IMG/VR virus record: IMGVR_UViG_2711768050_000003
DNA: 35,951 nucleotides
Direction: 5' to 3' (one strand)
Source: a virus
Taxonomy: Duplodnaviria; Heunggongvirae; Uroviricota; Caudoviricetes
Part shown: positions 1,369 through 20,876 of the stretch, one piece after another
How the letters are laid out: the number at the start of each line of letters is the position of its first letter
Position numbering within the stretch: position 1 is the first letter of the stretch
Notes under the pieces: model-generated
The model's database searches: none
What the model was told of the DNA's origin: nothing
What the model saw: only the letters and a program-made list of their open reading frames with translations
Program-made: the position numbers and the translations under genes

Positions 1369-1444
1369 GCCGATATAGCTCAGTTGGTAGAGCAGCGCAT
1401 TCGTAATGCGAAGGTCGTAGGTTCGACTCCTATTATCGGCACCA
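1369..1444 (+). tRNA. thrW: tRNA-Thr (anticodon CGU)
   Basis: 76-nt sequence GCCGATATAGCTCAGTTGG...GGTTCGACTCC...GGCACCA with D-loop, T-loop, anticodon loop CATTCGTAATG and encoded CCA; matches remembered E. coli thrW. Confidence 0.9.
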
Positions 1445-2622: not shown

Positions 2623-2849
2623 TTTCTTTCCTCTGTTATGCCATCACCCGCGCTCACCTGGACAGTATGCAGCGGAGACTGAAGAGCCGCAATGCAGGCT
2701 TGTCGTGTTGTGAGGTAAGGAGATTTATTCTTAGTGGGATCTTTGCGTGTTGCCTGAAGACGCCCTGTGCGTATCCAGTTAATAGCAGTCGGTCTGGATA
2801 TCTTGAGAAAATGACAGGCCTCATCGAGTGTGAGGCTGTATGGCTCCAT
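2499..2849 (-). CDS. xis: excisionase-like HTH protein (AlpA/Xis family)
   Basis: Internal ATG at 2849 gives [31 protein letters not shown], a typical excisionase HTH; ATGA overlap with the upstream gene stop. The frame stays open to 2499, so it overlaps int by 124 nt. Confidence 0.55.
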
Positions 2850-3193
2850 TATTTCACCTCTTGCTGTGACATTGTTGAAAAACGGATACCAGCTCGTTGC
2901 TGCCAGACGATCCAACTGAGAGTCATATCCCATGCCATGTATTCGTTATCGCCGTTTTTTGCTCTCCGACGATCGACTGTTTTACCGAAACGCTTTTCCA
3001 TAAATAATTCATAGGCTGCGCGTTCATCTGGCTCAACTTCCAGAGATGCCAGTGCAATCCGTGCCAGTTCTAAATCATTTTCAAGCTCAGCGCGAATCTC
3101 AGCGAATGCACTCTGTGTTAAGGCGAACTCAATGCTCTGCACTTTATTCCGTGCGCGCTCAAGCAGTGCATGGTAGTTAATTTCGGTTGTCAT
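2849..3193 (-). CDS. hypothetical early protein
   Basis: 114-aa ORF with GAGGTAGGGG RBS; ATGA-type overlaps with both neighbouring genes suggest translational coupling. Confidence 0.5.
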   Translation of the reverse strand: MTTEINYHALLERARNKVQSIEFALTQSAFAEIRAELENDLELARIALASLEVEPDERAAYELFMEKRFGKTVDRRRAKNGDNEYMAWDMTLSWIVWQQRAGIRFSTMSQQEVK

Positions 3194-4062
3194 ACCCCTA
3201 CCTCTTCGAATTCCAATTGATCACCCCAGATTTCACATGACTCTGAACACGAACCGGTATCGAATCGCCTGGCCTGTACCATCGCCTGATACAAATTTCT
3301 GTAGTCGCTGTTGGCAGACATTCTGGCAATTCCGTCAAGCGTCAGGTGACCACGGTACATAATGTCTTTACCTGTTCTGCGATGACCATCCCTGACGTGT
3401 TTGCCTGTAACCAGCTCATTAAAAACTCGCATCAGACCTGGTTCGTCTTTACATGCAAGCCCCAGCTTTTGCGTTGACTTTTTGATGCAGAAAACACAGT
3501 TCCCGAGATGCTCCGGGATTTGCAAATCAAAAGGTTGTTTTCGCCACCACCGGATAACATCCGACTTATCAAAATCTGATAGCTCGGCAAGATACCGGAC
3601 GCCCGATTTCGGTTTCAGCCTACGGGGTTCGTCTGCACGAATACCCAGCCATGTGATGTAATTACCTCGCCCGAAATGGTTATCGCAGTATTTCGTGAAA
3701 GGGATGAGTTTTAGCCTGTCAGTACAGAACGCGCCGCCGATGTATGGCGTGCCGTACTTTTTAACCATGTCCATAAACGGTTTAAGCACCGGCATTCGTG
3801 TCTGAATATCCTTTGGCTCCCATTCTGTATAACCATTTGGCTGCCCAAGCTCAGGATTTATATCGACCTGTAACAAAGTTAGTGGTATGTCCCAGAACTT
3901 TACAACCTCCCGGATAAAGCGGTATGTCAGCGGATGTTCGCAACCGGTATCCATAAAGATGTAGCAGACGTTATTGCCAGCCTTTCTTTGTTCTTCCATC
4001 AGGTGAACAAGATATGCGGATGTTCTCCCGCCAGAAAAACTAACTACATGAGTTATGCACAT
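3190..4062 (-). CDS. phosphoadenosine phosphosulfate (PAPS) reductase-family protein, phage type
   Basis: N-terminal VVSFSGGRTSAY PP-loop-like motif typical of the PAPS-reductase/ATP-PPase fold; start chosen at the ATG just before the motif (4062), alternative start at 4179. Confidence 0.55.
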   Translation of the reverse strand: MCITHVVSFSGGRTSAYLVHLMEEQRKAGNNVCYIFMDTGCEHPLTYRFIREVVKFWDIPLTLLQVDINPELGQPNGYTEWEPKDIQTRMPVLKPFMDMVKKYGTPYIGGAFCTDRLKLIPFTKYCDNHFGRGNYITWLGIRADEPRRLKPKSGVRYLAELSDFDKSDVIRWWRKQPFDLQIPEHLGNCVFCIKKSTQKLGLACKDEPGLMRVFNELVTGKHVRDGHRRTGKDIMYRGHLTLDGIARMSANSDYRNLYQAMVQARRFDTGSCSESCEIWGDQLEFEEVGV

Positions 4063-5606: not shown

Positions 5607-5969
5607 TTAACGACCTGCTGCGCGGAGTTTTCCGTCAGGTTCACCGGCAAGAGTCAGCAACTGTCCCTGGTCTTCCTGCAGAATAGTCAGGCGACCACCG
5701 CGATTGACATACATCGGCGTTTCGGTGGTGTCTTCTTCGGAAATTTTCCCGCGGTTAGTCGGGCGAACATATGAGAGTTTGTGTTTGATTTTCACTCGGT
5801 TCTCATCAAACGGTTCGATTTCTAGGTTGAGCGAGACCTTACCTTTGGTTTTCGTGTTCATCACACCGGAAGCGACTTCACTGAGTACTGCGCCGATTTT
5901 GGTTTCAAATACGCCGCCGTCCAGCTCCCTGATAAATGCCTGCACATCAGTACTGCGTTCGCTAGCCAT
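5607..5969 (-). CDS. YfdP-like prophage protein, function unknown
   Basis: Start at the internal ATG (MASERSTDVQ...) with GAGGAG RBS; the longer 226-aa six-frame ORF would run through GC-rich structured DNA with junk-like translation. Confidence 0.5.
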   Translation of the reverse strand: MASERSTDVQAFIRELDGGVFETKIGAVLSEVASGVMNTKTKGKVSLNLEIEPFDENRVKIKHKLSYVRPTNRGKISEEDTTETPMYVNRGGRLTILQEDQGQLLTLAGEPDGKLRAAGR

Positions 5970-6017
5970 TTTGCTGCTCCTCATCATATCGACCCTGCAA
6001 GGCCGGTTAGTTTCTCC

Positions 6018-6106
6018 ACAAAACAGAGAAGAACACCTGCGGTGACTGCCGCCCGGATGGATTGGGTTATGAGCCCGTCGTCCGGTGATGCTCTTCTCTG
6101 TTTTGT
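6018..6106. repeat. Long inverted repeat: 14-15-bp perfect stem (ACAAAACAGAGAAG / CTTCTCTGTTTTGT) closing a ~60-nt GC-rich loop
   Basis: Direct reading of both arms; located 48 nt upstream of the YfdP-like start in the leftward transcript. Confidence 0.6.
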
Positions 6107-6115
6107 AAAAAGGAC

Positions 6116-6150
6116 GGTACCAGCCGGAAGCAAGGGTACAAGCTGGTACC
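6116..6150. repeat. Perfect 9-bp hairpin GGTACCAGC-N17-GCTGGTACC containing GGTACAAG
   Basis: Direct reading; three GGTAC(A/C) motifs, and GGTACAAG is identical to one arm of the cI/cro operator palindrome at 7975..7995. Confidence 0.55.
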
Positions 6151-6375
6151 GCCAAGACTACACACAGCATAAAGTTGTGGTGCCGGGTGCCTCCCGGTGC
6201 CTGGCGAAGGTTGCACACCAGGCGGGTGGGTATCCACAGAAGGTCGACTGTCAGCCTCAACCTTAACCCGCGTGCGCTGAGCCGCATTCACCACAACGCT
6301 AAGGATTCTCTCTGGTTGAAAATACTTAGCTGTTATGTGCCTGCTTTTAGCCACATCAGGCGAGGTGGACCTAGT

Positions 6376-6422
6376 TATTCCCCAACAACAAGGATTCGGT
6401 TAATCTGGTTATCCCCAACAAC
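6376..6422 (+). repeat. Direct repeat TTAT(T)CCCCAACAAC x2 immediately upstream of the 6438 gene
   Basis: Copies at 6376..6390 and 6409..6422; the second ends about 16 nt before the ATG. Possible regulator-binding or promoter element. Confidence 0.5.
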
Positions 6423-6437
6423 GCAAAAGGAAAAGAA

Positions 6438-6872
6438 ATGTCCGGTAATATCTATACGCTGTACAAATCCCACTGTGAAAATGTTGGAAAGTATCGGGGC
6501 ATTGAAATCAGTGGGGTAGTGTCATCAGTCGAAATAAGCAAAGTTGAATCAAGGGCAACATTACTTACTCTTTTGGACCTTGTCTTACATGAGCACCGGA
6601 AGAAATTCGGCACTCCCTATAATCAGTTGAATGGGAAAAAGGCTCTGGTTCACCTTATTCTGATGAAGCATCACTGGATGCCAAAACAGATTAATGAGAT
6701 GAAATTTGATGAACTTCTTCTTTCAATTCAGGATGAACTCACACTTGATAAAATAAGCGTAACCGCCCAGAAATTTTTAGATTATCGAGACTGGAGATCA
6801 CAAATTCATCACTTTGATGATTTTGACGAAAATGAATGGGATCCTAATTTGTCTGCACAATATCTAAAGTAA
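6438..6872 (+). CDS. hypothetical protein, AT-rich cargo gene transcribed opposite to the early-left operon
   Basis: 144 aa with AAAGGAAAAG RBS; visibly AT-rich against GC-rich flanks; 3' end overlaps the convergent 6844..7050 gene by 29 nt; no recognisable motifs. Confidence 0.55.
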   Translation: MSGNIYTLYKSHCENVGKYRGIEISGVVSSVEISKVESRATLLTLLDLVLHEHRKKFGTPYNQLNGKKALVHLILMKHHWMPKQINEMKFDELLLSIQDELTLDKISVTAQKFLDYRDWRSQIHHFDDFDENEWDPNLSAQYLK

Positions 6873-7050
6873 CATCCTGTGATAAAACCGTGATTTCCTG
6901 ATCCAGTTTTTTTAAGGAGTCTATTGTTTCCTGTCGATAAGACAGCACTTCACGAAGCTGGTTTATAGCTGCCAGCTTCTTTGTCATCCACTCATAAATT
7001 TCCTCATCTGTGTAGCCAGGCGCGACGATTTTGGGTTCTGTTTTGTGCAT
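6844..7050 (-). CDS. hypothetical protein, first gene of the leftward PL operon
   Basis: 68 aa from the internal ATG (MHKTEPKIV...) with GGAGA RBS; lies directly downstream of the predicted PL. Confidence 0.45.
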   Translation of the reverse strand: MHKTEPKIVAPGYTDEEIYEWMTKKLAAINQLREVLSYRQETIDSLKKLDQEITVLSQDVTLDIVQTN

Positions 7051-7109
7051 TTCACATCTCCTCAAGTTATCAGTTACTTGTTGATGGGGACCAGATTGTT
7101 AAAGAGCTA

Positions 7110-7132
7110 AGCGTCCTGTAGGGCGCTTTTTT
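7110..7132 (+). terminator. rho-independent terminator, rightward
   Basis: AGCGTCC-TGTA-GGGCGCT stem-loop followed by TTTTTT; no U-tract on the opposite strand. Confidence 0.5.
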
Positions 7133-7211
7133 GTTGCTAACGAATCATCCTGGACTTCATATGCCCCAAGCGGCTACTTCGTGGGCGTCCTGCCTGTTCG
7201 TTGTTTCTCTT

Positions 7212-7246
7212 GGGTACATTATGTATCTCAAAGGTACATTGTCAAG
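7212..7246 (-). promoter_or_regulatory. PL-like early leftward promoter with overlapping operator half-sites
   Basis: On the minus strand: -35 TTGACA (7240..7245), 16-nt spacer, -10 CATAAT (7218..7223); GGTACA motifs overlap both hexamers. Confidence 0.5.
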
Positions 7247-7249
7247 TAT

Positions 7250-7270
7250 AAAAAAACCTGCCGAAGCAGG
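7250..7270 (-). terminator. rho-independent terminator downstream of cI
   Basis: Minus strand reads CCTGC-TTCG-GCAGG followed by UUUUUUU; 15 nt after the cI stop. Confidence 0.55.
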
Positions 7271-7284
7271 TTCATAAACATTGA

Positions 7285-7959
7285 TTAGGCTTTGATTTTG
7301 TATCTTCTTGGTTTTCCTGAGAAAATCACTGTACCAATTATAGAGCAATTACCGTTGATCTTAATGTAAGGCTCAGGCCAGTTTGGGTTTAACGCTTTGA
7401 GATAACGCTGTGTCCCATCTTCTATCAACCTTTTGAAGGTGGTTTCGCCTGTATCGTGCATCAATGCAATAACGTCGTCACCGTGGCAGGCAGGTACTTC
7501 AGGATCGACAAAAATCATGTCTCCCGGGCGGTACTCATCAATCATTGAATCACCTATCACCCGCAAGATATAAGTCATTTCCCCACAGGGTACAGGGCAG
7601 GGATACGTTTCTGCTGTGCTCAAATCAACCTCAGAATATCCAACTTCTTTCCATGCTCCGGCCTGTACCCATGATATGACAGGGACTAATGTGATTTGTT
7701 TATTAGTGATTGAAACATCAGGTTTTTTTGTGATGTTCGTTGTCTGGTGTTCTTGATCGAGCCATCCGACAGGCAGGTCGAAACATTTTTCGATGTGTCG
7801 TGCCATGCTGTCACCGATATTTTTAGTAGCACCATCTCCCATAAACCTGCTGGTCTGGGTTGGCTCGCGATCAATCATAGTGGCAAAGGAAGAATTCCCG
7901 CCAACACCATCTCTCAGTTTTCTGGCGTTAGACCGCCGGATGTCATGGATTGTTTTCAT
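7285..7959 (-). CDS. cI: CI-like repressor (HTH plus S24 LexA-like autopeptidase domain)
   Basis: 224 aa; C-terminal domain with GDSM (Ser) and FKRL (Lys) dyad; divergent from the cro-like gene across an operator-rich intergenic region. Confidence 0.85.
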   Translation of the reverse strand: MKTIHDIRRSNARKLRDGVGGNSSFATMIDREPTQTSRFMGDGATKNIGDSMARHIEKCFDLPVGWLDQEHQTTNITKKPDVSITNKQITLVPVISWVQAGAWKEVGYSEVDLSTAETYPCPVPCGEMTYILRVIGDSMIDEYRPGDMIFVDPEVPACHGDDVIALMHDTGETTFKRLIEDGTQRYLKALNPNWPEPYIKINGNCSIIGTVIFSGKPRRYKIKA

Positions 7960-7974
7960 AACGAAATTAAAACC

Positions 7975-8044
7975 CTTGTACCGTTAAGGTACAAGTATCT
8001 TGAAGGTTCATTTCAATCATGTAATATGTACACCGGAGGTACAT
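7975..8044. promoter_or_regulatory. OR/PR/PRM-like immunity switch region
   Basis: Perfect palindrome CTTGTACC-GTTAA-GGTACAAG (7975..7995); second GTAC-centred site TGTACACCGGAGGTACA (8027..8043); rightward promoter -35 TTGAAG (8000..8005), 16-nt spacer, -10 TAATAT (8022..8027). Confidence 0.5.
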
Positions 8045-8049
8045 ATTGT

Positions 8050-8250
8050 ATGAAAGCGTATTGGGACTCTTTAACCAAAGAACAGCAGGGCGAGTTGGCC
8101 GGAAAAGTTGGCTCAACACCTGGCTACTTACGGCTGGTTTTCAATGGCTATAAAAAAGCCAGTTTTGTGCTGGCTAAAAAACTTGAGCAATGCACGTCAG
8201 GTGCAATTACGAAATCTGACTTAAGACCGGATATCTATCCGAAAGATTAG
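8050..8250 (+). CDS. cro: Cro-like repressor (YdaS/Cro family HTH)
   Basis: 66 aa from the ATG at 8050 with GGAGG RBS; divergent from cI; resembles YdaS-type Cro proteins. Confidence 0.65.
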   Translation: MKAYWDSLTKEQQGELAGKVGSTPGYLRLVFNGYKKASFVLAKKLEQCTSGAITKSDLRPDIYPKD

Positions 8251-8281
8251 CAGAACACTTTCAATTTTTAACCACAGAACG

Positions 8282-8851
8282 ATGAGGCTAACCGTGGGTA
8301 AGCATCACTGGAAAATAGAAAAACAGCCTGAGTGGTACGTGAAAGCTGTCAGAAAAACTATCGCGGCGTTGCCGGGTGGTTACGCTGAAGCGGCTGACTG
8401 GCTCGATGTAACAGAAAACGCTTTATTCAACCGCCTTCGTGCAGATGGCGATCAGATTTTCCCGCTGGGATGGGCAATGGTTTTACAGCGTGCTGGTGGC
8501 ACTCACTTCATTGCTGATGCTGTGGCGCAGTCTGCAAATGGCGTCTTTGTGTCTCTTCCTGACGTCGAGGATGTGGACAACGCCGATATCAACCAACGCC
8601 TGCTGGAAGTCATTGAACAGATCGGCAGTTATTCAAAACAGATTCGTTCAGCAATCGAAGACGGTGTAGTGGAACCGTATGAGAAGACAGCAATTAACGA
8701 CGAGCTGTATCTCTCAATTTCGAAGCTGCAGGAGCATGCAGCACTTGTCTACAAAATTTTTTGCATTTCAGAAAGTAATGACGCCCGCGAGTGTGCAGCT
8801 CCGGGCGTCGTGGCGTCGATTGCTTCTGGTTGTGGAGAAACTAACGCATGA
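8282..8851 (+). CDS. CII-like / YdaT-type early regulatory protein
   Basis: 189 aa in the position between cro and the replication gene occupied by cII-like regulators in lambdoid prophages; family assignment from memory only. Confidence 0.4.
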
Positions 8852-9186
8852 ACAGTTTAACAACACACTACCGTCGCTCGCAACTGATTGCGCTTCCTGT
8901 ACCGGGTGGAAAAGCGAAGGTGGAATATTGCTATGCAGTGAATGTACCAGGTGACAGGGAAATTGTAACCCACAGCTTTGCAGAGTGGGCTGTGGGTGAT
9001 TTCAACCGGCAGAAGGAGACAGTCCTTTGCGACAAGTTAACCGCTGGTTCAAAGATCACTACGGAGTGCCCGTCAGAGTCATTCGTTGGGAGCCGGAAAC
9101 ACAACGGGTTATCTACCTCCGCGAAGGTTATGAGCATGAATGCTTCAGTCCGCTCGAACAGTTTCGTCGTAAATTCAGGGAAATAG
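8848..9186 (+). CDS. hypothetical protein (possibly only the first ~60 codons are real)
   Basis: 112-aa ORF with ATGA overlap to the upstream gene; the C-terminal half is Ser-rich and low-complexity and overlaps a better-looking frame. Confidence 0.3.
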
Positions 9187-9206
9187 AGGTCGGTCATGAG
9201 CACTAA
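9027..9206 (+). CDS. small hypothetical protein with TTG start, missed by the ORF track
   Basis: AGGAG (9014..9018), 8-nt spacer, TTG at 9027; 59 codons ([40 protein letters not shown]...) ending 11 nt into the replication gene; no in-frame ATG. Confidence 0.35.
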
Positions 9207-10137
9207 ATTAACCGGCTATGTATGGGATGGTTGCGCTGCATCAGGCATGAAGTTATCCAGCGTGGCAATTATGGCCCGCCTGGCTGATTTCAGTAATGAC
9301 GAAGGTGTGTGCTGGCCATCAATTGAAACCATTGCCCGCCAGATTGGCGCGGGGATGAGTACCGTCAGAACGGCTATCGCACGGCTGGAAGCTGAAGGCT
9401 GGTTAACGCGTAAGGCGCGTCGCCAGGGTAACCGCAATGCGTCGAATGTTTATCAGCTTAACGTTGCGAAGCTTCAGGCAGCGGCATTTTCTCAACTGTC
9501 AGATTCTGACCCGTCAAAATCTGACGCATCAAAATCTGACCCGTCAAAATTTGATGCGTCGAAATCTGGCAAAAAAGCGGGTTTTCACCCGTCAGAATCT
9601 GGCGGGGATCCGTCAGTAAAATCAAAACATGATCCGTCAGATAAAAATACTTCTCGTCCGGACGCTTCGCAACCGGACACGCAGACGGCTGAACAGGAGT
9701 TTTTAACTCGCCATCCTGATGCGGTTGTATTCAGCCCTAAAAAGCGCCAGTGGGGAACGCAGGATGATTTGACCTGCGCACAGTGGCTCTGGAAAAAAAT
9801 CATCGCCCTGTACGAGCAGGCCGCCGAATGTGACGGCGAGGTGGTTCGTCCCAAAGAACCGAACTGGACAGCCTGGGCAAACGAAATTCGCCTGATGTGT
9901 GTGCAGGATGGTCGTACTCACAAACAAATCTGCGAGATGTACAGCCGCGTCAGCCGCGATCCGTTCTGGTGCCGTAACGTGCTCAGCCCGTCGAAGCTGC
10001 GGGAAAAATGGGATGAGCTTTCCCTGCGCTTATCGCCGTCCGTCAGCACGCACACAGAAAAACGCGAAGACCCGTACTTCAAATCCAGTTACGACAACGT
10101 GGACTACAGCCAGATCCCGGCAGGATTCAGGGGGTGA
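9196..10137 (+). CDS. replication initiation protein (N-terminal HTH, internal iteron region, DnaT-like C-terminus)
   Basis: 313 aa; N-terminal HTH (IETIARQIGAGMSTVRTAIARLEAEGWL); gene body contains tandem 15-bp iterons as in lambda O. Confidence 0.65.
   Translation: MSTKLTGYVWDGCAASGMKLSSVAIMARLADFSNDEGVCWPSIETIARQIGAGMSTVRTAIARLEAEGWLTRKARRQGNRNASNVYQLNVAKLQAAAFSQLSDSDPSKSDASKSDPSKFDASKSGKKAGFHPSESGGDPSVKSKHDPSDKNTSRPDASQPDTQTAEQEFLTRHPDAVVFSPKKRQWGTQDDLTCAQWLWKKIIALYEQAAECDGEVVRPKEPNWTAWANEIRLMCVQDGRTHKQICEMYSRVSRDPFWCRNVLSPSKLREKWDELSLRLSPSVSTHTEKREDPYFKSSYDNVDYSQIPAGFRG
9505..9650 (+). repeat. Origin-like iteron array inside the replication gene
   Basis: Tandem 15-bp units TCTGACCCGTCAAAA, TCTGACGCATCAAAA, TCTGACCCGTCAAAA, TTTGATGCGTCGAAA (9505..9564), then degenerate CCGTCAG copies and an A-rich tract. 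Confidence 0.6.
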
Positions 10138-18651: not shown

Positions 18652-19146
18652 ATGGCTGGAACGGCGGGGCGTTCCGGGCGTCGCCCCAAGCCAACGGCGC
18701 GCAAGGCGCTGGCCGGAAACCCCGGCAAGCGAGCCCTGAATAAAGATGAACCTGTTTTTACGCCCATCAAAGGTGTTGAGCCACCGGAGTGGTTCGCAGA
18801 AGAAAATCTCCCTCTCGCCACGATCATGTGGCAACTGACAACCAAAGAACTCTGCGGTCAGGGCCTGTTGTGCGTGACTGACCTCGCGGTGCTTGAGCGG
18901 TGGTGCGTGGCCTATGAGTTCTGGCGACGTGCCGTGAAAAATATTGCCATACAGGGCAACACCATCACCGGTGCAATGGGCGGCAGGGTCAAAAATCCGG
19001 AGCTGACCGCCAAAAAAGAACAGGAGTCCGAGATGAGCAGCACGGGGGCAATGCTCGGACTCGACCCCAGCAGCCGCCAGCGTCTGATTGGCCTGGCGGG
19101 GCAGAAGAAAGCCACTAACCCGTTTCTGAAAATCATCGAGTCATGA
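18652..19146 (+). CDS. terminase small subunit (P27-family-like)
   Basis: ATG at 18652 preceded by AGGAG with 10-nt spacing (the track's GTG at 18643 has no spacer); stop overlaps the large-subunit start. Confidence 0.7.
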
Positions 19147-20876
19147 GCCGGAAATCTTACCCCAACGTAAATGCTGCCAATCAGTATGCCCGTGATGTTG
19201 TGCGCGGAAAGATTGTGGCCTGCCAGTTTGTGATTCAGGCCTGCCAGCGCCATCTTGATGACCTGATGGCGGAAAAAAGTAAGTCGTTTCGTTACCGCTT
19301 CGACAAGGACCTGGCTGAACGGGCCGCCAAATTTATTCAGCTGTTGCCGCACACCAAGGGTGAGTGGGCATTCAAGAGGATGCCCATCACGCTGGAGCCG
19401 TGGCAGCTATTTGTGGTCTGCTGTGCGTTTGGCTGGGTCAATAAAGGGTCCCGGCTGCGCCGCTTCCGGGAGGTGTATACCGAAATCCCCCGTAAGAACG
19501 GCAAATCGGCAATCTCTGCCGGTGTTGCCCTGTATTGTTTTGCCTGTGATAACGAGTTTGGCGCGGAAGTGTATTCCGGTGCCACGACAGAGAAACAGGC
19601 GTGGGAAGTCTTTCGCCCGGCGCGACTGATGTGTAAACGCACACCCATGCTGACGGAAGCGTTCGGGATTGAGGTTAACGCCTCAAACATGAATCGTCCG
19701 GAGGATGGCGCGCGGTTTGAACCGCTGATCGGTAACCCCGGTGATGGTTCATCACCCCACTGTGCGGTGGTGGATGAATATCACGAGCACGCCACCGATG
19801 CGCTTTACACCACGATGCTTACCGGGATGGGGGCGCGACGTCAGCCACTGATGTGGGCCATTACTACTGCCGGGTACAACATTGAGGGGCCGTGCTACGA
19901 CAAGCGACGGGAAGTTATCGAGATGCTCAACGGGTCGGTACCCAACGATGAACTGTTCGGGATCATCTATACCGTTGACGAAGGCGATGACTGGACCGAC
20001 CCGCAGGTGTTGGAAAAAGCTAACCCGAATATTGGCGTGTCGGTTTATCGCGAATTTTTGTTAAGTCAGCAGCAGCGTGCGAAAAATAACGCCCGTCTGG
20101 CAAACGTCTTTAAAACAAAACACCTCAATATCTGGGTGTCGGCGCGTTCGGCGTATTTCAACCTGGTGAGCTGGCAGAGCTGCGAGGATAAATCACTGAC
20201 CCTTGAGCAGTTCGAGGGGCAGCCGTGCATTCTGGCCTTTGACCTGGCCCGTAAGCTGGATATGAACAGCATGGCGCGACTTTATACCCGCGAGATTGAC
20301 GGTAAAACGCATTACTACAGTGTGGCCCCGCGTTTCTGGGTACCGTATGACACGGTGTACAGCGTCGAGAAAAATGAAGATCGCCGGACAGCCGAACGCT
20401 TTCAGAAATGGGTGGAAATGGGCGTCCTGACCGTTACCGATGGTGCAGAGGTGGATTATCGCTACATCCTCGAAGAGGCCAAAGCGGCGAACAAAATCAG
20501 CCCGGTCAGCGAGTCACCCATCGACCCCTTCGGGGCGACCGGGCTGTCACATGACCTTGCTGATGAAGACCTGAATCCCATCACCATCATTCAGAACTAC
20601 ACCAACATGTCCGACCCGATGAAAGAGCTGGAAGCGGCAATTGAATCGGGGCGCTTTCATCATGATGGCAATCCCATCATGACCTGGTGTATCGGCAACG
20701 TGGTCGGCAAAACCATTCCGGGTAACGATGATGTGGTGAAGCCCGTCAAAGAGCAGGCGGAAAACAAAATCGATGGTGCAGTTGCGCTGATTATGGCGGT
20801 TGGCAGAGCCATGCTGTATGAGAAAGAAGACACGCTGTCCGACCACATTGAGTCCTACGGGATCCGCTCGCTTTAA
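19143..20876 (+). CDS. terminase large subunit
   Basis: 577 aa; N-terminal ATPase region and C-terminal nuclease region typical of HK97-type large terminases. Confidence 0.9.

Follow-up and report, generated by a model that had tools for sequence, protein, structure and literature searches.

A convergent two-gene cassette carrying an ECs1072-family gene occupies a variable slot beside the PL promoter of a lambdoid prophage

The open reading frame (ORF) ORF144, which encodes 144 amino acids (aa), lies antisense to the early-left operon, next to the immunity region within the prophage sequence IMGVR_UViG_2711768050_000003 (35,951 nucleotides (nt) in total, hereafter the window). Here, we found that ORF144, referred to as gene A, is one member of a mobile, non-essential, two-gene convergent cassette located in a variable slot between the early-left promoter PL and a small RNA (sRNA) of the STnc100 type. 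The other member, gene B, encodes a 68-aa partner. Gene A runs antisense and gene B sense to lytic transcription, both are conserved as proteins, and gene A appears to carry signals of a transcription unit of its own. As to function, we tentatively propose a self-contained A/B moron, in which A may be expressed in the lysogen and switched off during convergent lytic transcription, with A acting as an interference factor and B as its antagonist at the time of induction. Phage morons are autonomous accessory transcription units of lambdoid prophages, a concept of Hendrix and Juhala. The main features are as follows.

6438..6872, plus strand: gene A (ORF144), ECs1072-family protein of 144 aa (ORF list and family match)
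6427..6431, plus strand: Shine-Dalgarno sequence AAGGA of gene A, 6 nt ahead of the ATG (read from the sequence)
6844..7050, minus strand: gene B, partner of 68 aa, acidic and with a coiled coil (phrog_1744), first ORF after PL
7063..7058, minus strand: strong Shine-Dalgarno sequence GAGGAG of gene B
7245..7218, minus strand: PL promoter, TTGACA-16-CATAAT (11/12 match), with GGTACA operator half-sites on both sides

Gene A is a conserved protein-coding gene

An earlier note on this DNA had described ORF144 as an AT-rich orphan gene with a good ribosome-binding site, placed between GC-rich flanks and transcribed against PL. The gene, its ribosome-binding site and its direction against a strong PL were all confirmed, as was its base composition, with a guanine-plus-cytosine (GC) content of 37.9% against 51.7% for the window. 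The GC-rich flank was found on the left side only (52.8% GC at 5970-6437, the STnc100/DicF-like region), while the AT-rich tract runs on rightward from A through gene B (40.6% GC). The orphan status did not survive. Gene A matched the NCBIfam model NF033230, 'ECs1072 family phage-associated protein', with 157.8 bits, its residues 4-144 aligning to positions 2-142 of the 142 in the model; membership of this family is defined by a whole-protein hidden Markov model (HMM) score above the curated cutoff of 70 bits over the full model, which gene A clearly exceeds. It also matched phrog_5286 (PHROG 5286) with an E-value of 1.5e-90. A sensitive scan over 1.8 billion cluster representatives placed 65 clusters at the 50% level in the A family (E <= 1e-3), nearly all of them encoding 143-157 aa. 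Homologues are spread across Enterobacterales, and named members come from Escherichia, Salmonella, Serratia, Rouxiella, Enterobacter, Proteus and Providencia, and further from Hafnia, Xenorhabdus, Erwinia, Kosakonia and Phytobacter. The phages SfIV (gp36), Kati, 569R4 and 689R6 encode a 100%-identical protein, which is recorded in exactly this form on at least 1000 contigs, and at least 80% of the cassette (6300-7130) was found in 410 of 5426 complete E. coli genomes.

A comparison with the 72%-identical allele of an E. albertii prophage (locus L005; such numbers are our locus identifiers) gave a synonymous divergence (dS) of 0.76 and a ratio of nonsynonymous to synonymous divergence (dN/dS) of 0.225, which points to a truly coding gene under purifying selection; for cI, the same comparison gave a dS of 0.20 and a dN/dS of 0.03. 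The flanks of the two prophages are 95-100% identical, whereas ORF144 alone falls to 78% nucleotide identity. Since this drop is limited to ORF144, a different allele has been swapped in exactly at the ORF borders. The family alignment remains colinear down to 23-38% identity, and in 38 aligned sequences the columns H72 and W134 are invariant, with R39, L46, L50, R54, L64, G66, A69 and W80 also conserved. The AlphaFold2 model of A built on the same 38-sequence alignment is all-alpha with eight helices and was predicted with high confidence (predicted local distance difference test (pLDDT) 93.9, predicted template modelling score 0.88).

ORF144 might nevertheless be a chance or decaying ORF in AT-rich junk DNA, given that it has no recognisable domain and no consensus promoter in the window. 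This explanation is effectively refuted by conservation, as the dN/dS, the 65 clusters with their conserved length and motifs, the at least 1000 contigs and the confident model all stand against it. As to expression from the repressed prophage, the only indirect evidence is a microarray signal of ECs1072 in Sakai without induction, which depended on the growth phase (PMC2241611). Searching the full-text literature for this name returned one microarray table only, and the SfIV genome paper says nothing on gp36. A tblastn search of the phage collection with the Sakai ECs1072 protein produced no match. The search for related loci returned 3 genome loci and 80 identical IMG/VR copies with A1 as the query, and none with P0082 or P0017.

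Gene B is the conserved partner of gene A

In the earlier note, the ORF overlapping ORF144 was taken as the first gene of the PL operon. Gene B is indeed the first ORF after PL and converges on A with a 29-nt overlap of the 3' ends, but it is a conserved partner in the same cassette as A and not a resident early gene. In two other prophages, the small partner ORFs beside 38%-identical A homologues resemble the B of the window in blastp (39% identity, E 5e-15, and 34% identity, E 6e-10), and the small ORF again converges on and overlaps the 3' end of A, beside an S24 repressor. Moreover, look-ups starting from B in Klebsiella and Citrobacter always reached a convergent, overlapping A-type gene of 148-152 aa, which matched the ORF144 family profile with E-values of 1e-43 to 1e-53. 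B homologues form 222 clusters, and B was intact in 79 of 80 IMG/VR contigs carrying an identical A.

PL-type and late-type B proteins share an N-terminal P..xxG(M/Y)TxEE(L/I)ExW(L/M) motif, which is followed by a coiled coil. Their homology was detectable by blastp down to E 3e-6 and by profile-profile comparison with hhalign (probability 74.6%, E 2.6e-5), and an HMM built from seven B sequences picked up an independent partner from Serratia at 2.9e-23. In the pairs lying between the antiterminator gene Q and the holin gene, the palindrome TGGGATCC encodes W-D-P in both proteins on opposite strands, A reading DWDPxEN with an invariant W-D-P and B reading FPWDPSP. The B of the window ends immediately before this site. 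Given that A retains the W-D-P motif where B is absent, the B tail looks overprinted on A.

Positions of the TGGGATCC palindrome: L012 3811; L105 5400; L007 3747; L006 3683; window 6837

The isoelectric points are 6.4 for A and 4.8 for B, and the maximum Kyte-Doolittle hydropathy over 19 residues is 0.84 for A and 0.29 for B, without any hydrophobic or transmembrane segment in either. A is a soluble all-alpha protein. Two assignments were considered and rejected. An HD-superfamily phosphohydrolase would carry conserved metal-binding residues H..HD..D and show significant fold similarity, and neither was found in A, whose conserved columns include no HD doublet. An exclusion protein of the Rex or SieB type was dismissed for both A and B, which have no Pfam homology to RexA, RexB or SieB and no membrane segment.

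The cassette lies in a variable slot

The earlier note had proposed a single orphan gene inserted antisense to PL beside the immunity region, and advised a comparison across related prophages. The insertion was upheld and is accessory, as other phages carry other cargo at this place, and what is inserted is a two-gene convergent cassette, not a single gene. SfV corresponds to the window up to 6368 and from 7139 on, and PhiR29 up to 6422 and from 7091 on, with unrelated cargo in between and flanks 97-99% identical to the window; cI and Cro of SfV are identical to those of SfIV. The phages mEp460 and SfII have yet other small ORFs in the PL slot, while in ST64B this slot is empty and the A/B pair is found in the late region. 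Judged from these genome comparisons, the cassette behaves as a moron, its presence varying among close relatives with sharp mosaic borders, and it is dispensable for the switch. Among the 80 IMG/VR contigs with an identical A, the right-hand homology break was located at about 7200-7210, at PL, in roughly 35, and the left break at about 5980-6000 or about 4060. These break positions suggest that the sRNA, A, B and the terminator move as one mosaic block between immunity regions.

The other cargos have features of their own. The slot of SfV (L002, U82619) contains an unannotated 81-aa ORF (3008-3253, plus strand), which has a ribosome-binding-site context like that of ORF144 and is preceded by GTGGTATCCT. 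It converges on orf33 (3171-3467, minus strand) with an 83-nt overlap, a different convergent pair in the same layout. In PhiR29_1 (L003), an annotated 242-aa coding sequence at 2827-3555 begins inside the conserved sRNA region; the true cargo is probably a 171-aa plus-strand ORF starting from GTG 3040. This ORF encodes a coiled coil and a CxxC...CxxC zinc-ribbon-like tail, and it is flanked by the same inverted repeats and terminator as the cassette of the window.

The convergent pair recurs at three positions

We defined an A/B pair as an A-family ORF whose 3' end overlaps an opposite-strand B-family ORF, B being read in the direction of the lytic operon around it. The window holds such a pair, and across 9 loci the 3' overlaps span 29-95 nt. 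Wherever the two are paired, A runs against the lytic operon in which the pair lies, and B runs with it. The first position is proximal to PL (the window, L005, L008 and L009). The second lies between the Q antiterminator and holin genes and was found in an E. coli prophage, ST64B, Klebsiella phage KPP5665-2, three Proteus prophages, a Serratia prophage, and Klebsiella and Citrobacter loci; the L012 pair is of this type. At the third, ECs1072 itself lies antisense to PR in the Sakai prophage Sp4, with a cII-like gene on one side and the replication gene O on the other. Therefore, the immunity-proximal PL side, which the earlier note had pointed to as a home of exclusion functions, holds for the window and is one of three homes of the pair.

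Sakai Sp4 pair (L018, NC_002695): 19117-19677, plus strand; 19361-19816, minus strand

ECs1072 is now named ECs_5703. The B-like ORF converging on it matched the B profile with an E-value of 0.006 and is unannotated in that RefSeq record, and the long B variant of the Sakai type has been called by other annotators as a protein of 166-169 aa (P0236, P0237). In Salmonella phage ST64B (L006, AY055382), we identified a full-length, unannotated ECs1072-family ORF of 151 aa at 36414-36869 on the minus strand of the record. It is 78% identical to an E. coli member, lies between the Q region and the holin gene on the strand opposite to late transcription, and overlaps the annotated sb50, which is the B-type partner. 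In the Proteus prophages L014, L015 and L016 (about 6800-9700), the A/B pair is constant and the adjoining stretch varies among relatives, containing an uncharacterised 449-aa protein, a SIR2_2 and DUF87 (HerA-like) pair, or a 733-aa SMC_N/AAA_13 protein, which suggests a hotspot of defence cargo beside the pair. In Klebsiella and Citrobacter (L109, L114), Q and B are separated by a PhdYeFM-type antitoxin pair, an N6_N4 methyltransferase or DUF6731.

These positions bear on the main rival to our proposal, namely that the convergent transcription of A, perhaps together with its protein product, keeps leaky transcription from PL, PR or PR' out of functions toxic to the lysogen, and that B, made once the promoter is fully active, opens this gate. 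At all three positions, the cassette is directly upstream, in the lytic sense, of a harmful function on which the 5' end of A abuts, namely the DicF/STnc100-like sRNA in the window, O in Sakai, and the holin and lysis cassette in the late region. The conserved convergent overlap would fit such a gate, as would the constancy of the pair in three related Proteus prophages whose neighbouring defence cargo varies. However, phages whose cI, Cro and PL are the same can do without the pair or carry something else instead (SfV and PhiR29), and the PL slot of ST64B is empty. Transcriptional interference alone needs no conserved 145-aa protein, and solitary chromosomal copies of A have no lytic operon to gate. 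On balance, we consider a gate of this kind unlikely.

Gene A has putative signals of its own transcription unit

The following repeats and hairpins surround gene A.

6376-6389: direct repeat 1, TATTCCCCAACAAC, upstream of A
6409-6422: direct repeat 2, TTATCCCCAACAAC, upstream of A
6402-6421 (left, at the second direct repeat) and 7078-7097 (right, TTGTTGATGGGGACCAGATT): arms of a 20-nt inverted repeat bracketing the A/B cassette
6954..6979, plus strand: terminator-like hairpin, a 9-bp stem followed by TTTGTCAT, inside the B coding sequence and 82 nt past the A stop
7109..7128, plus strand: strong predicted intrinsic terminator, an 8-bp stem and TTTTTTGTTG, at the right edge of the slot just beyond the B start

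The direct repeats that the earlier note had seen ahead of ORF144 are present, 33 nt apart and of the form (T)TAT(T)CCCCAACAAC, with a third copy in inverted orientation at 7080-7093. Matches to the repeat with up to 3 mismatches number 10 in the window against 3.2 expected. PhiR29 carries the same inverted-repeat arms, with a matching base change in both, around its different cargo. The flanking inverted repeats pair in the minimum-free-energy structure of the cassette RNA, and the whole-cassette fold is no more stable than those of shuffled sequences (z -0.9).

An extended -10 motif, TGnTAnnnT (typically TGGTATCYT or TGATATYGT), was found 25-48 nt ahead of the A start at 11 of 16 loci, solitary chromosomal A copies included, where 0.026 matches per 40 nt are expected by chance. 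Both direct repeats of the window carry a one-base-longer variant (TAGTTATTCC, TGGTTATCC) of the family motif TGGTATCC(T), so that they look like a duplicated, altered copy of the extended -10 element. Upstream regions of the TGGTATCCT type are present in L009, L105 and SfV. Taken together, a promoter belonging to A appears well supported at the family level and is putative for the allele of the window. Hairpins on the A strand inside B also occur in five late-type loci (L012, L014, L006 and L007 among them), and PhiR29 has the terminator at 7109-7128 as well, about 40 nt past its alternative cargo. If the A transcript ends at this terminator, the whole of B would be covered in antisense.

Convergent transcription units with overlapping 3' ends, an A terminator inside B and a location in prophages are also what a toxin-antitoxin-like or addiction module would show. 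The prophage type I systems txpA/RatA and bsrG/SR4 have a similar layout. Both A and B, however, are conserved soluble proteins and neither is a small hydrophobic toxin, the state in which A alone is made (the lysogen) is the stable one, A stands alone in several genomes, and no toxin-antitoxin or PADLOC matches were found; such a module is therefore quite improbable. A type II toxin-antitoxin operon was likewise rejected, as the genes are convergent rather than co-directional and contain no toxin-antitoxin domains from Pfam or PADLOC.

Prophage setting of the cassette

The window is a lambdoid prophage of the SfIV/SfV/CPS-53 type. Its stretch 5900-7300 is 98.1% identical to Shigella phage SfIV, and 5900-7202 is 99.7% identical to Escherichia phage Kati. 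From right to left, the gene order is cro, OR, cI, the cI terminator, PL, a hairpin, B, A, a GC-rich non-coding region, yfdP and yfdQ, with more early-left genes leftward of yfdQ (DUF2303). The GGTACA half-sites of PL occur again at OR.

7285..7959, minus strand: cI repressor (Peptidase_S24, domain match)
7254..7273, minus strand: intrinsic terminator of the cI transcript (terminator scan)
6104..6327, minus strand: STnc100 (RF02076)-like prophage sRNA, which makes up the GC-rich flank on the left; in the PL transcript it lies downstream of B
5607-5969: yfdP, early-left gene

The match at 6104-6327 covers the full-length STnc100 model with 43.4 bits (E 9.4e-8), just under the gathering threshold of 47, and a weak match to a DicF-like core is embedded in it (6112-6166, minus strand). 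A 2026 preprint describes STnc100 and PasD in exactly such prophage surroundings. In the SfIV annotation, this stretch is covered by the yfdP coding sequence SfIV_34 (226 aa), which is probably over-extended, and by SfIV_35 (114 aa), which overlaps the start of ORF144. Between yfdP and the STnc100-like element, there is a long imperfect hairpin with 25-nt arms (6018-6042 and 6082-6106; 84% complementary, 39-nt loop), which could be a processing site or part of an sRNA precursor. At the left of the prophage, a tRNA-Thr gene (anticodon CGT; 1369-1444, plus strand) is presumably the attachment-site tRNA (thrW-type), in which case the window begins in host DNA.

Proposed function of the A/B pair

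The convergent layout suggests that A and B are expressed in opposite states. While cI holds PL shut, only A would be transcribed, the 3' part of its mRNA being antisense to B. Upon induction, strong transcription from PL would read through B and silence A by transcriptional collision and antisense pairing, so that the two proteins would be made in mutually exclusive states. A might then act in the cytoplasm of the lysogen, for example in defence or interference against incoming or co-resident phages, and B, made once the lytic operon of its own phage fires, might counteract or replace A and leave the resident phage unhindered. Most plausibly, A would provide a lysogen-state cytoplasmic activity that interferes with other phages, and B would be the induction-time antagonist of its carrier. 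We favour phage interference because prophage defence genes are known to reside in immunity regions (PMC12724215; PMC8585504), BstA-type self-immunity offers a precedent, the allele swap is confined to A, and the cassette is freely replaceable. In its widest form, the proposal would be a previously unrecognised module, in which an A effector and a B antagonist, made mutually exclusive by the convergent overlap, stand at three lambdoid 'gates' (PL, O and holin), A hitting other phages and B giving self-immunity; we regard this extension as doubtful, if still conceivable. A may instead serve lysogenic conversion, acting on host physiology without any link to phage defence, for example by binding a host protein or a nucleotide as a small regulator or adaptor, with B an unrelated or co-resident lytic-phase protein. 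We give this explanation a small chance of being right.

Several results weigh against phage interference by A with B as its antagonist. The earlier note had recognised no domain in ORF144 and advised remote-homology searches and structure prediction; apart from the named family NF033230, these left the protein without a recognised domain. The Pfam search with A, B and 38 A-family members gave no family at E <= 0.1, and the PADLOC-DB 2.0 HMM search gave no match for A or B, with one chance-level match (E 0.036) among the 38 A-family members. Profile searches against PDB sequences with A, B and the 38 members yielded nothing usable, and the fold search with the A model, BFVD included, found no match. 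The alternative slot cargos in SfV, PhiR29, mEp460 and SfII, when checked, included no known defence genes. Upstream of A in the window and in its near-identical relative L005, there is no exact TGnTAnnnT, and a consensus sigma-70 scan of the same regions found no promoter. In L005 (1070-1312, minus strand), B is frameshifted after residue 48, which could reflect a pseudogene, a sequencing error or an effect of the allele swap across the overlap. One prophage (L004, 56% identity) has A without a recognisable B, and A stands alone in apparently chromosomal or degraded contexts (L010, L017, L102), from which it follows that B is not obligatory. A role of B in early self-immunity is also hard to reconcile with the Q-holin position, where it would be produced only late.

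Comparison with known systems

The A gene family is already catalogued, and the moron in a variable slot is a well-known type of element. What appears to be new is the A/B pairing, its fixed polarity at three operon entrances, the putative A terminator within B, the dual-strand W-D-P and the family-wide extended -10 motif; a literature search found no paper on the pairing, the fixed polarity, the embedded terminator, the dual-strand W-D-P or the extended -10 motif. A and B are annotated only as hypothetical, and one partner is often unannotated in reference records, although the cassette is common in E. coli and has relatives in Salmonella ST64B, in prophages of Klebsiella, Proteus, Serratia and Citrobacter, and in O157 Sakai. 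As a conserved convergent unit in fixed orientation, the two anonymous ORFs become a testable module, with state-specific exclusive expression and A-B antagonism as its predictions. Should A turn out to act in defence or in prophage interference, it would represent a small, soluble, single-domain system with a new fold and a new self-immunity logic for immunity regions.

Gene A is a full-length member of NF033230/PHROG 5286, while the namesake ECs1072 is divergent and located at another position (between cII and O). Like morons, A and B vary in presence among near-identical phages, deviate in base composition and sit at operon junctions, and A comes with a ribosome-binding site, terminator-like hairpins and, at the level of the family, a promoter motif. 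Unlike morons, they form a conserved convergent pair with overlapping coding regions, one member of which is in the sense of the lytic operon.

With rexAB, sieB of lambda and P22, BstA-aba and the Gifsy genes remAIN and gipd474, the cassette shares the position of a non-essential gene beside the repressor of a temperate phage, but A and B have no sequence or fold similarity to any of them. Moreover, rexAB shares a transcript with cI, and A and B are soluble, unlike the membrane proteins SieB and RexB. The defence gene gipd474 from the Gifsy immunity region was considered as an A-family member and rejected, as it is about 1.1 kb long and so belongs to another family (PMC12724215). BstA of Salmonella shows that a defence gene can bring along self-immunity for the time of induction (PMC8585504).

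The layout of A and B is the same as that of oop and cII, and in Sakai Sp4 the pair even has the same position, between cII and O and antisense to PR. The oop RNA of lambda is an antisense unit, a 77-nt non-coding RNA that overlaps the 3' end of the lytic-sense gene cII. In contrast to oop, A is a conserved protein-coding gene of about 145 aa, and if it proves to gate transcription, it would be the counterpart of oop-type antisense control in the form of a protein-coding gene.

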